Part shown: positions 19,160 to 26,820 of the stretch, in pieces
How positions within the stretch are numbered: position 1 is the stretch's first letter
Layout: each line of letters opens with the position of its first letter
Virus record (IMG/VR): IMGVR_UViG_3300029705_000074
Source of the DNA: a virus
DNA length: 64,000 nt
Direction: 5' to 3' (one strand)
The notes under the pieces: model-generated
Told to the model about the DNA's origin: nothing
The model's database searches: none
What the model saw: the letters and a program-made list of their open reading frames with translations, nothing else
Translations under genes and position numbers: made by a program

Positions 19160-19480
19160 TCAAGTTCCCTCTGCCTGAGTTTCCTTCAACGCCTCATCAA
19201 ATAGCTAATATAACCCCTCTTTATCCATCTCACACCACCAATACTCATAAGCTTCGTATCCCTCATATTCAAATATTGTTCCATTGACCGCTTCCAGTAG
19301 AATTACATGTTCTAGCTTGGGAAACCAAGATATAAAAAGACTGCTAAGCAAAATGGGTAGCAACCCATCGGCTATTACATCTAAATCAAAACTAATTTCT
19401 CCATCTGAATATTTATCCCACGCACTTCTATACTATGCATATATCTCATAAAACCTATTCCATAGTGCTCTATCTATCAT
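19160..19480 (-). CDS. hypothetical protein (two in-frame TAG)
   Basis: ATG 19480 after TAAAGGAGAG; the frame is open through two TAG codons to TGA 19160-19162. Confidence 0.4.
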
Positions 19481-19494
19481 GTTTTGTCTCTCCT

Positions 19495-19905
19495 TTATTC
19501 CTATTCGGCAAGCTTAAAAATCTTGTCACCATTTCTTACATACCCGCCCTCTAAGTATTCTGGGTTCACAAATATCTGCTCCGCCACCTCTCGTAGAATA
19601 GACGGATATGTACTATCTTCTATTGTACTATCATGTACTATTGTATTATTTCTCTATGCTTTTTCAGACTAACTTGTCTGGTTTTCAGATAATGTTGTCG
19701 GTTTTTCAGACATTTCTGCCACTCCGATCGTCGGCTTTTCAGATTTTCCGCTTTCCGCAACAATCGGTTTTTCAGATTGAATCTGGTTTTCAGACAAAAT
19801 GCCTGTTGTCGGTTTTTCAGACAAAATTGTCTGAAATTCAGACTCCCCGGCCATCCGAGGATTTTCGTAGAATACTAAAATATTGCTACCCTCGCTCACT
19901 GGCAC
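19495..19905 (-). CDS. SEKPT-repeat protein (three in-frame TAG), low confidence
   Basis: Supplied ORF 19669-19905 continues through TAG 19669-19671 to TAA 19495-19497. The SEKPx repeats are the translation of the GGTTTTTCAGA DNA repeat, so coding status is uncertain. Confidence 0.3.
19655..19845. repeat. array of 8 direct repeats GG(T/C)TTTTCAGA(C/T), spaced 20-33 bp
   Basis: Copies at about 19659, 19680, 19700, 19733, 19766, 19785, 19811 and 19833, plus inverted partial copies (GTCTG). The array overlaps a low-confidence minus-strand ORF. Confidence 0.6.
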
Positions 19906-19920
19906 TAAATAGCCCAGTTC

Positions 19921-20169
19921 CTACATCTTCTTCTTTGCGCTCTGGTAAGCGTCTTTCTTCAAGCCCCAATCTGCCAAAACTTTTTGGCTTAACTCAAACT
20001 GAAATCCGTCTTGATTTTTATTGCAATACAACCAAAGTTTCAAAGACTCGCCCTTGAGATTACGCATAGCCTCTTGCAAGCTATCTAAATGCATCAATGC
20101 ATAAGTATTATTTTTATTAAAGGGTCTTCTAGGAGCTATCTTTACGATATACTGATTACTTGCTGACAT
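19921..20169 (-). CDS. hypothetical protein
   Basis: ATG after GGGGGTAGGA; 82 aa; stop TGA. Confidence 0.5.
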   Translation of the reverse strand: MSASNQYIVKIAPRRPFNKNNTYALMHLDSLQEAMRNLKGESLKLWLYCNKNQDGFQFELSQKVLADWGLKKDAYQSAKKKM

Positions 20170-20338
20170 AATCCTACCCCCCTAGAATTATATCCAAGTC
20201 TCTCTAAAACTTCTCTGTAACCTCAAAAATCCAGCAACTAAATTGCGGGAACTTGGGGTTTGGCATCGTAGAGATAGGTATATTTCCCTTCTCAACAAGC
20301 TATTCCATTACCTTAAGGGAGTAAATAATTTTGTTCAT
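20156..20338 (-). CDS. small hypothetical protein (60 aa, three in-frame TAG)
   Basis: ATG 20338 after GGAGG; open through TAGs to TAA 20156. Confidence 0.3.
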
Positions 20339-20354
20339 TTGCTAATTTGCCTCC

Positions 20355-20498
20355 TTACTCCTAGGTCTTAATATATTCTTTCAGAGCCTTTCTAATAACC
20401 TAAGACATGGTTAAATCATGCTCTTGAGCAAACTGCTCCAACTCTTTCTTTTCTTCTTCGGTGAGTCTAACCGATACAGTAGAATACTCTTTAGCCAC
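20355..20498 (-). CDS. ribbon-helix-helix (CopG/Arc-like) protein, 47 aa with two in-frame TAG
   Basis: GTG after AGGAGG. Reading through TAG restores the RHH C-terminus VIRKALKEYI, ending at TAA. Confidence 0.45.
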
Positions 20499-21661: not shown

Positions 21662-22543
21662 TATGCCTAAGAAAATAGATTTAACAGGTCAAACTTTTGG
21701 TCGCTTAACAGTCCTATATGAGCTACCAGAAAGAAAGAATGGGAAAGTGTAGTGGCACTGTAAATGTGAGTGTGGTAACGAAAAAGACGTGATATCTACA
21801 CAGCTTACTGGTGGGCGCACTTAGTCTTGTGGATGCCTACAAAAAGAAAGAACTTCAGAGGCTAACTCTAAAGGTATAGATTTAACAGGATAGACCTTTG
21901 GGCGTTTAACCGTATTGCATCGCAGTCCAAATAGTGCTAAATGGGTATGTTAGTGTGAATGCGGTAATAAAACAGAAGTAACGACCACCCACCTAAAAAC
22001 GGGCCACTCTAAATCTTGTGGTTGTTTATAGAAAGATAAAGCCTCGGAGACTCGTGGTATTAATCTAACCGGCAAGCGGTTTGGTATGTTAACCGTATAG
22101 GGATTAAACCTAGAAAAATCAACTACTCAAGTAAAATATTGGAATTGTTTGTGCGATTGCGGCAATTCTACAGTTGTGCCTACAGGCGCATTGCGCTCTG
22201 GCTCAACACAAACTTGTGGTTGCAAGAAAATGTCTCATGGAGAGATTAAAATAGCACAACTATTAGATGAGTATAATATACCATATGAAAGAGAAAAAAT
22301 CTTTAACTCGTGCATTAACCCAACTACAAATCGCCCTTTACGCTTTGACTTTTATGTAAACAATCAGTATTTAATCGAGTTTGATGGTAAGCAACATTTT
22401 GAACAAACGAACTGGGAACCACTAAGCGATGTGCAATATAGGGATGAATTGAAAAACAAGTGGTGCAAGGAAAATAATATACCCCTAATTAGGATACCCT
22501 ATACAAAACTAAATGTTCTTGACATCAACGATCTTCTACCTTA
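21662..22543 (+). CDS. homing-endonuclease-like protein: three zinc-finger repeats plus C-terminal DUF559/Vsr-like nuclease domain; six in-frame TAG
   Basis: ATG after GGAGGGAA. Repeat unit LTGxxFGRLTV...WxCxCxCGN...SCGC occurs three times. All six internal stops are TAG and several align with Q in sister repeats; C-terminus RPLRFDFYV...IEFDGKQHF. Confidence 0.55.
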
Positions 22544-22738
22544 ATCAGAAGCCCTCTGTATCTTAATACAGAGGGCTTCTTTTCTTTTGCAAAAAATTAA
22601 AAATTATGATATTATGTATATAGAAAGCAAGAGGATAGGCAACTTCTACCCTCACGATATTCGTGTGGGACGATTTTACGGAAGCGAGGCCATTTCTTCC
22701 GAAACCACCCATTTATTTTTAGAAAGGGAGTATTTAGG

Positions 22739-26100: not shown

Positions 26101-26820
26101 ATGAGTAAATGGTCAGAACTACTACCCCAAGAGGCTCTCAATCTCAGCGTGCAACTCGCTAACCATGCTCAAGAGGAGCGAGATAAGGGAAAAGTCCTAT
26201 TCCCTCCGCAGGATTAGATTTTCAGAGCATTGAACTTAACCAAGCCAGAAGATGTAAAAGTATGTCTGGTTGGACAAGACCCCTATCATACACCCGGCTA
26301 GGCCAACGGACTCGCATTCTCGGTCGCCGCAGGAAATAAACTTCAGCCCTCTCTGGTAAACATCTTCAAAGAGTTAGAGGATGACTTAGGCATCCCGAAA
26401 CCCGCCAATGGAGATTTGACCAAGTGGGCTGAAAATGGCGTCCTGTTGCTGAATACTAGCTTGACCGTATATGAGCATCAAGCAAACAGTTGCGTTGGCT
26501 GGGGATGGAATAAATTTACAAAAGCAGTATTACAGGCTGCTACAAAGCTACCTCAACCTGTTGTTTTCTTGCTGTGGGGTGCAAACGCGCAGGATTTGTT
26601 GAAAGATTTGATTTCATGCGCGGCAGTTTATGAAGATGGCGGACACGTTGTTAAGGAAAGCCTAATCAATAAGGCTTACGTTCTATCTTCACACCCAAGT
26701 CCCTTTAGCGCAACAAAACAGTGTAGAGGCACTCCTGCTTTCAGAGGAAGCAAACCTTTCTCTACGGCAAATAATCTATTAGTAAGTATGGGTGGTGAAG
26801 CTGTTGATTGGAGATTATAA
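26101..26820 (+). CDS. ung: uracil-DNA glycosylase (family 1) with two in-frame TAG codons
   Basis: PPQD, GQDPYH, LLLNTSLTV and HPSPFSA motifs. TAG 26296-26298 sits where E. coli UDG has Gln (GPGQAHG). The supplied ORF 26416-26820 is only the post-TAG fragment. Confidence 0.7.

Follow-up and report, generated by a model that had tools for sequence, protein, structure and literature searches.

The 64,000-nucleotide (nt) stretch of viral DNA analyzed here (IMG/VR record IMGVR_UViG_3300029705_000074, hereafter the window) very probably comes from a gut phage that uses genetic code 15, in which TAG is read as glutamine (Gln, Q) and TAA and TGA terminate, with decoding through a suppressor tRNA encoded by the phage itself. 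A first-pass annotation had already proposed that TAG is a sense codon, most likely for Gln, starting from the uracil-DNA glycosylase (UDG) gene at 26101-26820; the suppressor tRNA is the mechanism that it missed. TAG-to-Gln recoding as such is already established, including in the phAss-1 phage group, and is ordinary. Most of the interest of the finding lies in the variable arm of the suppressor, which carries a small hairpin shaped like a Gln anticodon arm. This pseudo-anticodon arm and its tryptophan (Trp) counterpart on opal suppressors appear to be an undescribed variant of a known mechanism.

In-frame TAG codons and the residue they encode

The family-1 UDG gene (26101-26820, plus strand) is a single frame of 239 codons, running from ATG at 26101 to TAA at 26818-26820, and its only two internal stops are both TAG, at 26215-26217 (codon 39) and 26299-26301 (codon 67). 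The product, translated with X at both sites, matched the Pfam UDG family (4.9e-14), and solved family-1 UDG structures in the PDB aligned with residues 16-238 (E 5e-48), across both TAGs. The catalytic motifs GQDPYH, GLAFSV, LLLNTSLTV and HPSPFS were all found. This supported the first-pass view that the gene is intact only if both TAGs are translated, and that one of them replaces a conserved Gln, as TAG67 fell on the Gln of GP(G/N)QAHG. A search of 1.84 billion cluster representatives gave 149 aligned homologs with at most 50% mutual identity, 104 of which have Q at codon 67, the codon 39 column being variable (D 35, Q 26, E 18). In the best match (P0241, 239 amino acids, 82% identical), Gln occupies both TAG sites (PPQEQIF and HTPGQANG).

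Reading through TAG across the window yielded 13 genes with 31 in-frame TAGs. Besides the UDG gene, these are:

21-377, minus strand: small nuclease, paralog of the C-terminal domain of 21663-22544; 1 TAG (195-197)
441-2177, minus strand: terminase large subunit (TerL); 1 TAG (2031-2033, codon 49)
2164-3348, minus strand: conserved phage gene (phrog_3314); 2 TAGs (2830-2832 and 2191-2193)
3353-4417, minus strand: sigma-factor-like gene, first of the minus-strand packaging/structural operon; 2 TAGs (4097-4099 and 3620-3622)
19160-20498, minus strand: block of four small genes, all TAG-containing, 11 TAGs in total, as follows
19160-19480, minus strand: small gene; 2 TAGs
19495-20169, minus strand: small gene; 4 TAGs
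20156-20338, minus strand: small gene; 3 TAGs
20355-20498, minus strand: RHH/Arc-like repressor (phrog_876/7325/3180); 2 TAGs
21663-22544, plus strand: triple-repeat Zn-finger nuclease; 6 TAGs (21750, 21822, 21891, 21951, 22029, 22098)
33344-34120, plus strand: GIY-YIG homing endonuclease, inside the tRNA array; TAGs at 33425 and 33515
41979-42512, plus strand: conserved 177-residue protein (P10); 1 TAG (42426-42428)
46590-47225, plus strand: HNH endonuclease, just downstream of the suppressor tRNA; TAGs at 46752, 46761 and 46962

Every gene that the first-pass annotation had listed as affected (GIY-YIG, HNH, repeat nuclease, 21-377, TerL, RHH and 41979-42512) thus contains an in-frame TAG, but its count of at least 15 fragmented genes came down to the 13 that we could support.

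Homology ran through the TAGs in each of the genes that could be tested for it. The phrog_3314 match spans residues 5-326 of the 2164-3348 product, and the sigma-factor-like product matched phrog_5767 (sigma factor, 4.7e-38) over residues 32-352, with both TAGs inside the match and Q in 13 of 15 relatives at the second. Twenty relatives conserve the 48 N-terminal residues that TerL has upstream of its TAG, and show K or C in place of the TAG itself. The Pfam GIY-YIG match (residues 2-87) covers both TAGs of that gene. In 21-377, the TAG takes the place of the Q in the motif (E/D)G.QH, which 28/28 relatives and the paralog have there, and the codon is CAA in the nearest relative (L003). The first-pass annotation had seen this alignment with the motif Q but had assigned the paralogs to DUF559; the family is instead matched, weakly, by Pfam DUF2726. 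The 41979-42512 protein, which had been called structural, matched no Pfam family, and its 52 homologs all have Q at the TAG (DGTMTQKAITDEL). Among 120 homologs of the triple-repeat nuclease, Q ranked first or second commonest at four of the six TAG sites, and among 68 HNH homologs the third TAG column holds E 50 times and Q 17 times. The same pattern continued beyond the window, in a contig of the same phage reaching 9.5 kilobases (kb) to its left (L001), where a portal match (61-525) runs across a TAG and about 14 further TAGs lie in seven genes adjoining the portal.

None of the 88 called genes ends in TAG: 61 end in TAA and 27 in TGA, as the earlier description of the terminators had stated. 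The triplet is completely absent from the reading frames of the 75 TAG-free genes, against 95 and 91 occurrences in their two other frames. The TAG codons are identical in eight other assemblies from different samples (99.7-100% identity), with no TAG-to-CAG polymorphism. Relatives at 50-70% protein identity are too distant for their codons to be informative, save for the CAA mentioned above. These data bear on whether the TAGs could be amber mutations in pseudogenes, or assembly artefacts, under the standard code. Such an explanation would be helped by the lack of a coding-density gain under table 15 with a crude gene caller and by one conserved in-frame TAA that resembles a plain nonsense mutation. 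Nevertheless, conserved genes contain 31 internal TAGs against one TAA and no TGA, and the TAGs lie in essential genes (terminase, portal) that are not degraded. They fall preferentially on Gln columns, the phage encodes a suppressor tRNA to match, and the related L036, L045 and phAss-1 also have in-frame TAGs and CUA tRNAs. We consider this alternative effectively refuted.

The single TAA contradicts the earlier statement that every internal stop is TAG. It interrupts the following gene:

28905-29801, plus strand: RNase_T/DEDD-like exonuclease gene; in-frame TAA at 28992-28994 (codon 30)

The codon follows the DxE motif (GDEF-TAA-SLIRP) and aligned with Tyr in the L036 ortholog, which matched over 338 residues (53% identical, E 8e-90). 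No other TAA or TGA of the window both has coding signal on its two flanks and lacks a nearby start codon, and the codon is identical in four independent assemblies (L037, L038, L039 and L041). No ochre suppressor tRNA was found in the window. ARAGORN reported a tRNA with anticodon TTA (ochre suppressor) at 7740-7813 of L045, a 131-kb relative that also encodes a long-arm CUA suppressor, and at 4505-4578 of L046; its acceptor stem is poorly paired, and the call may be spurious.

The first-pass annotation had suggested comparing tables 15 and 11 by protein-family matches and by coding density. Homology across the TAGs favored table 15, but coding density did not discriminate, with values of 0.612 (table 11) and 0.617 (TAG as sense, table 15) from a crude codon-usage gene caller. 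The two values are nearly equal because TAG is sparse and because the TAG genes differ in codon usage; hence, the support for recoding comes from homology and not from density. Gln is encoded by CAA 61, CAG 45 and TAG 31 times in the TAG genes, vs. CAA 98 and CAG 283 times in the TAG-free genes, so that the two transcription blocks, one preferring CAA and the other CAG, differ in codon usage. A codon model trained on the TAG-free majority gave poor scores to the TAG genes. A coding-potential continuity scan across stops flagged true gene boundaries and the TAA at 28992 only, and no TAG site. A six-frame translated search for stops inside matches was swamped by off-frame high-scoring segment pairs, with boundary noise remaining after best-frame filtering.

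We have then assigned the inserted residue from 27 TAG sites with at least three homologs each. The homologs came from related loci in the case of the left-hand operon and otherwise from sets of 120 for the repeat nuclease, 120 for the HNH endonuclease and the 41979-42512 protein together, and 150 UDG representatives. Gln was the best fit, with summed log2-odds of +20.4 bits, followed by K (-6.2), E (-28.2), N (-30.2), S (-39.4) and W (-59.6). The sums of mean BLOSUM62 scores gave the same first rank (Q +26.0, E +13.6, K +11.3, S -3.6). Tabulating the aligned residues, as the first-pass annotation had proposed, showed that Q makes up 23.4% of the homolog columns at TAG sites, compared with 33.0% at true CAA/CAG sites of the same proteins and 4.3% overall; the share is 5.7% at Lys, 6.6% at Glu and 2.3% at Ser sites. 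By this internal calibration, the TAG-site profile is nearest to the Gln class. Three sites are invariant or nearly so for Q, namely DGTMT-Q-KAITDEL (52/52), EYQG(K/I)-Q-HY (28/28) and NxEI-Q (13/15), with Ser seen once. We take these conserved sites, along with UDG codon 67 (104/149), as decisive for the choice of residue.

Some alignments weigh against Gln, or against the code as a whole. Many variable TAG sites align to K, E, D, T or, at two sites, hydrophobic residues and not to Q; examples are TerL (K 13/13), site 146 of the repeat nuclease (I/L/V) and the HNH sites with T and L. Such residues are expected at variable sites if most TAGs derive from CAG codons where changes are tolerated. 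The UDG orthologs of L035 and L036 (72% identical) have Ala at TAG67, so that this position is not invariant within the clade; these orthologs have an in-frame stop of their own, two residues upstream of TAG39 and aligned with a Gln of the window UDG. The exonuclease TAA falls outside the code-15 model and may mark a pseudogene or a site of reinitiation. We have also weighed the alternative that TAG is sense but specifies another residue, most plausibly serine (Ser), or Lys, Glu or Trp, through a mischarged CUA tRNA. Several sites do align mainly to K or E, but the log-odds and the conserved sites given above speak for Gln over each of these residues, and 28 of 29 tested phage tRNA-CUA gave Gln in Escherichia coli extracts (PMC12636597). 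We regard this alternative as improbable. Proteomic data from crAss-like phages likewise show TAG as Gln (PMC9523058).

The suppressor tRNA and its variable-arm hairpin

The suppressor lies in a large tRNA array, whose features of relevance here are:

30052-47806, plus strand: tRNA array, 31 tRNAs including the suppressor, plus a tmRNA
31079-31152, plus strand: tRNA-Gln, anticodon CTG
39592-39665, plus strand: tRNA-Gln, anticodon TTG
46095-46185, plus strand: amber suppressor tRNA, 91 nt, anticodon CTA at 46128-46130 (ARAGORN; Rfam tRNA model, 53 bits)
46139-46151, plus strand: variable-arm hairpin of the suppressor, stem GGC/GCC, 7-nt loop CUUUGAA

The Rfam match covers the whole gene, with 17 nt inserted in the variable region, and the gene adjoins tRNA-Ser(TGA) (46002-46094) without spacer. 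Its variable region of 20 nt is of the same size class as that of this neighbor. The D arm (GUGU-AAUGGCUA-GCAC) is of type I, like those of the phage's own tRNA-Gln genes. At the acceptor end, positions 1 and 72 are mismatched (U1.U72), G2 pairs with C71, and G73 and an encoded CCA are present; the molecule also has G10 and U35. By analogy with published E. coli work, this acceptor and identity set is of the tRNA-Gln/tRNA-Trp type: the E. coli GlnRS identity features present are the unpaired 1:72, G73, G10 and U35. Minimum free energy folding gave a value like those of shuffled sequences (z = -0.88) with the T arm mispaired, and this fold is uninformative, so that the cloverleaf rests on ARAGORN, Rfam and covariation. 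A search for loci related to the 110-residue protein adjoining the suppressor gave no matches.

Several features of the suppressor do not favor charging with Gln. Two Gln elements of E. coli are missing, G36 (the anticodon CUA has A36) and G3-C70 (C3-G70 is present instead). The body is not clearly derived from tRNA-Gln, as the nearest tRNA of the window is Asn (76%), then Leu, with Gln at 56-59%, and by blastn against GenBank phages the 5' half resembles phage tRNA-Trp genes, a resemblance that would fit insertion of Trp. A long variable arm together with G73 is also read by SerRS, which ignores the anticodon; this would fit insertion of Ser. Nonetheless, a Ser identity is unlikely because G1-C72 is absent, the D arm is of type I and not of type II as in tRNA-Ser, and the variable stem has only 3 bp, where tRNA-Ser has at least 4-5, and bears a Gln anticodon loop.

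Other identities suggested by the anticodon or the long arm were rejected on architecture. ARAGORN labeled the gene tRNA-Pyl from the anticodon alone; it has a standard cloverleaf and a 20-nt variable region, unlike PylT with its 3-nt variable loop, short D loop and 6-bp anticodon stem, and no Pyl genes (pylS/pylBCD) were seen among the proteins scanned. A tRNA-Sec reading was likewise dismissed, and an allo-tRNA, with a 12-bp acceptor branch divided 8/4 or 9/3, does not agree with the 7-bp acceptor and 5-bp T stems given by ARAGORN and Rfam.

The loop of the variable-arm hairpin is built like that of an anticodon arm, C32 U33 U34 U35 G36 A37 A38, which corresponds to the anticodon UUG. The YUG triplet in its anticodon-loop context is thus located in the variable arm instead of the anticodon loop. 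The loop CUUUGAA is identical at six of seven positions to CUUUGAC of the phage's tRNA-Gln(UUG) and differs by one base from the suppressor's own CUCUAAA.

We have found the same hairpin in other suppressors. It is present, with a CU(C/U)UGAA loop, in the long-arm suppressor of the syntenic relative L045. A first IMG/VR scan, whose pattern specified the D arm, the CUA anticodon arm and nothing else, gave further long suppressors (L047/51/54 and L052), all with CU(C/U)UGAA loops on differing stems. In phAss-1 (L391, OQ749652.1), an 88-nt tRNA-Sup-CTA (62445-62532) has a CUCUGAA variable-arm hairpin, A1-U72 and G73, and an adjacent 72-nt tRNA-Sup-CTA (62539-62610) has no hairpin, U1.C72 and G73. 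A metagenome scan that required YTGAA in the variable region, pooled with the matches in viral contigs, gave at least 91 unique long-arm sequences. Among the matches listed, the loop is CUCUGAA in 63 and CUUUGAA in 13 (together 76/88), the others being near variants; the 1:72 pair is U:A in 33, U:U in 30, A:C in 14 and A:U in 6, and G73 is present in 73/89. Ordinary tRNA-Gln genes of the fetched loci never had a long arm (0/78).

The stem of the hairpin covaries. Counting was done on fixed 17-nt hairpin windows (45 distinct hairpins), as a full-length MAFFT alignment misaligned the variable stems. The two loop-proximal pairs are paired in 100% of the 45 hairpins, one of them being CG in 20, GC in 17, UA in 6 and AU in 2. 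The stem covariation score was 0.484, compared with 0.18 +/- 0.03 for shuffles (0/500 reached it) and with at most 0.147 for slid registers. A conserved loop on a covarying stem across very divergent tRNAs indicates selection on the loop.

Unbiased IMG/VR scans, in which the patterns specified no more than the anticodon arm of a suppressor and a T arm separated by a long gap, extended the comparison to opal suppressors:

Amber (CUA) long-arm suppressors, 57 unique: U-YUG-R in the variable region in 38, U-CCA-R in 2
Opal (UCA) long-arm suppressors, 81 unique: U-YUG-R in the variable region in 1, U-CCA-R in 45

The association of amber with YUG and of opal with CCA was strong (Fisher p = 8e-21). 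When all U-NNN-R triplets were counted, CUG occurred 31 times in the amber set, along with GAA (32), which is an overlapping reading of the same UGAAG motif, and CCA came on top in the opal set (45). The opal hairpins typically have a 5-6 bp stem and the loop CUCCAAA, which is the tRNA-Trp anticodon loop, and the opal tRNAs with a CCA arm have the bacterial tRNA-Trp acceptor signature (A1:U72 in 36/45, G73 in 44/45). Long-arm suppressors without either motif have other ends (G1:C72 with A73, or C73). ARAGORN labels the opal hairpin suppressors tRNA-SeC; they come from the IMG/VR loci L266-L364, e.g., L279 (12405-12453), L301, L317 and L321.

The extra arm thus bears the anticodon for precisely the amino acid to which recoding in phages assigns the stop codon in question, Gln for TAG in code 15 and Trp for TGA in code 4. 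We tentatively propose that the hairpin may supply the anticodon identity or affinity element lost by the suppressor, so that unmodified host GlnRS or TrpRS, or Gln- or Trp-specific tRNA-binding enzymes, accept the tRNA. In the phage studied here, a Gln-type acceptor end (unpaired 1:72, G73, G10 and U35) would be combined with a hairpin providing the G36 that the CUA anticodon has lost. If true, the pseudo-anticodon would account for the fact that recoding in phages nearly always pairs TAG with Gln and TGA with Trp.

An alternative that we find quite conceivable is that the hairpin is not an identity element and is a relic of a duplicated anticodon arm or has another role, such as an anticodon-nuclease decoy, a modification-enzyme site or a help in competing with RF1 on the ribosome. 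The loops CUUUGAA and CUCUGAA are one base from CUCUAAA, which is exactly what a partial duplication of the anticodon arm would give. Phages also have short CUA tRNAs without the arm, phAss-1 having both forms. Structural considerations tell against the identity role too: the variable region faces the solvent in known class I synthetase complexes, and it is hard to see how a 3-bp hairpin would reach the anticodon-binding domain. Against this alternative stand the conservation of the loop on a covarying stem in very divergent tRNAs, and the separate pairing of amber with Gln and of opal with Trp together with the matching acceptor sets, as expected of an identity function. Moreover, aminoacylation can be improved by a pseudo-anticodon engineered into the variable arm (PMC7590224). 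No description of such an arm in natural tRNAs was found in the PMC/bioRxiv literature, though members are already in GenBank.

Distribution of TAG codons and possible gating of late genes

The TAG-bearing genes are unevenly distributed between the strands of the window, comprising all eight minus-strand genes and five of the 80 on the plus strand (Fisher p = 2e-8), and three of these five are of the homing-endonuclease type. The TAG-rich minus-strand operon starts at the sigma-factor-like gene and takes in the phrog_3314 gene, TerL, a nuclease, portal and other conserved genes of the module to which no function is assigned (phrog_3313 and phrog_4088). The TAG-free plus-strand genes include the tRNA array with the suppressor, genes for nucleotide and NAD metabolism and RNA repair (FolD-like and PARG-like genes, an RNA ligase, a nucleotidyltransferase and an NAD synthetase) and a vault-like pair.

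This arrangement could allow a translational gate. TAG codons are concentrated in the sigma-headed minus-strand operon, the small minus-strand regulatory block and the mobile nuclease genes, and the suppressor sits in a plus-strand tRNA array among almost TAG-free genes. The standard-code genes, including the suppressor, would be expressed first, and full-length products of the TAG genes would be possible only once the suppressor had been expressed and charged. With TAG in packaging and regulatory genes, the need for a charged suppressor would act as a translational gate on late genes. Suppression would also permit synthesis of the sigma factor through which these genes may be transcribed. A late-gene bias and a gating model have been put forward for recoded phages by Borges et al. 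(bioRxiv 10.1101/2021.08.26.457843), and the strong strand and module bias seen here, with a TAG-rich packaging/portal operon, would fit that model. A point that does not help this proposal is that lysis genes, for which a recoding bias has also been reported, were not identified in the window. From sequence, we infer the synthetase that charges the suppressor, the role of the hairpin in charging and the temporal gating.

The completeness of the reassignment is a related question. Host RF1 might still terminate at TAG, giving a leaky and tunable read-through, with some TAGs, especially those 1-8 codons before a TAA or TGA, still acting as real stops. Four TAGs are close to the end of their frame, in the phrog_3314 gene (codon 386/394), 19495-20169 (223/224), RHH (46/47) and 20156-20338 (55/60). 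These C-terminal TAGs may be former terminators that possibly keep a partial terminator function. Further, no release factor (RF2 included), synthetase or anti-RF1 function was found in the window, which is about half of the genome; this counts against full recoding. Two rescue functions of the array would help the cell under read-through:

35270-35425, plus strand: ArfA-like ribosome-rescue factor, 51 residues (Pfam 26.6 bits, above cut-off), about 500 nt upstream of the tmRNA
35919-36257, plus strand: tmRNA, tag DNSYFENHLAA

This pair could offset the read-through of host TAG-terminated mRNAs during suppression. On the other hand, TAG is never the sole terminator of any gene, and most TAGs lie deep in essential conserved domains (TerL, portal, sigma factor and the UDG active-site loop), so that a viable phage would need a high suppression efficiency. 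Partial reassignment is, in our judgment, somewhat unlikely, and it is compatible with the reading of TAG as Gln, from which it differs in degree.

Phage group, annotation and comparison with known systems

The phage is a large uncultivated siphovirus-type member of the EF1/Geobacillus E3/phAss-1 group of Bacillota phages, which are rich in tRNA genes. Its TerL (YonF-type) is 48-49% identical to those of Enterococcus phages VRE9_4, H1 and EF1, 45% to that of Geobacillus virus E3 and 43% to that of phAss-1, over 90-95% of its length. A megablast of 24 kb against 50,697 GenBank phage records gave no nucleotide-level relatives, the only matches being tRNAs. Related IMG/VR and ENA contigs measure 114-131 kb, and the same phage (99.7-100% identity) is present in at least eight assemblies from different samples.

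The TerL genes of relatives showed two further features. In L004, L005 and L006 (58% TerL identity, one on a 123.6-kb contig), in-frame TGA aligns with Trp in TerL (at 9929 and 10235 in L004, TerL 9839-10423), so that the phage family has both TAG-recoded and TGA-recoded members. In L012, L015, L016 and L018-L023, TerL is interrupted by ~1-1.5 kb of inserted sequence, which may be introns, inteins or homing endonucleases, and in Enterococcus phage EF1 the TerL match is in three pieces around an HNH gene.

Two tRNA-like genes of the window were detected by Rfam and missed by ARAGORN, one (39668-39780, plus strand, 46 bits) with an insertion of ~40 nt in the anticodon-arm region and the other (34983-35075, plus strand, 37 bits) with an enlarged anticodon loop and an extra variable region. 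A further observation concerns the following pair:

47859-49364 and 49740-52142, plus strand: vault-like/DUF2828-DUF7788 gene pair

Its members are an 800-residue protein resembling the major vault protein (Pfam MVP_shoulder 9e-20 and a Vault_3 repeat) and an adjoining 501-residue DUF2828/DUF7788 protein (phrog_850, "RNA-binding protein"), the latter being conserved in L045. An antisense frame of 1476 stop-free codons (47739-52169, minus strand) overlaps the pair; the Pfam and PHROG matches are on the plus strand, and the open antisense frame probably reflects avoidance of TTA, CTA and TCA codons in the vault-like pair.

In practical terms, this genome and its relatives need annotation with table 15; otherwise the genes for terminase, portal, sigma factor, UDG and a number of nucleases come out in fragments. 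How anticodon-dependent host synthetases charge a stop-reading tRNA is an open question in the literature on recoded phages, and the hairpin makes it directly testable. If functional, the hairpin would be a natural case of a so far engineered design, a sequence signature by which the tRNA would suffice to predict which amino acid is inserted, and a source of new parts for genetic-code expansion. The strand separation between a suppressor among TAG-free genes and a sigma-headed TAG operon also offers a clean system for tests of late-gene gating.

Code 15 is known from Caudoviricetes of the crAss-like, Lak, Agate and other clades (Ivanova 2014; bioRxiv 10.1101/2021.08.26.457843; PMC9523058). The phage resembles them in having in-frame TAG on Gln positions of conserved genes, a tRNA-CUA, TAA and TGA at gene ends, a suppressor among standard-code genes and what may be a bias of recoded codons to structural/late genes. 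Unlike in those clades, the GC content of the window is not low (45.8%), recoding is sparse (31 codons in 13 of ~88 genes), and neither RF2 nor a synthetase was found in the window.

The closest comparison is phAss-1 (proposed Phassvirus, EF1/PMBT10 group), for which TAG-interrupted genes and a tRNA-Sup-CTA have been described, also in some relatives (Babkin et al. 2023, PMC10607447; OQ749652); the variable-arm feature of its tRNA is not mentioned in PMC10607447. The two have in common genomes of 114-141 kb for the group, large tRNA arrays and TAG in TerL, portal and other genes. They differ in that the phage described here is a separate lineage without nucleotide similarity to phAss-1 and has one suppressor tRNA in the window vs. 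three.

Among suppressors of E. coli, supE (tRNA-Gln CUA) and su+7 (tRNA-Trp CUA, which is charged with Gln) derive from type-I tRNAs by one base change in the anticodon and are poorer GlnRS substrates. The phage suppressor is like them in combining a CUA anticodon, in which U35 is kept, with G73 and a weak 1:72 pair; unlike them, it adds a 13-nt hairpin that would present the lost YUG anticodon again. An anticodon-like stem-loop outside the anticodon position, offered to the anticodon-binding domain of a synthetase, is also found in the pseudo-anticodon arm engineered into a variable arm, a synthetic construct on an allo-tRNA chassis with a synthetase fused to an extra binding domain (Mukai 2020, PMC7590224), and in natural anticodon mimics of mRNA such as the thrS operator (PMC9976931). 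In contrast to the engineered tRNAs, those of phages are natural, have the 7/5 acceptor/T form and would have to be charged by host enzymes that are not modified. Finally, the ~20-nt variable arm recalls type-II tRNAs (Ser, Leu and bacterial Tyr), tRNA-Sec and allo-tRNAs (PMC5389517), from all of which the phage suppressor is set apart by its 7/5 geometry, type-I D arm, U1.U72, 3-bp variable stem and conserved anticodon-like loop.

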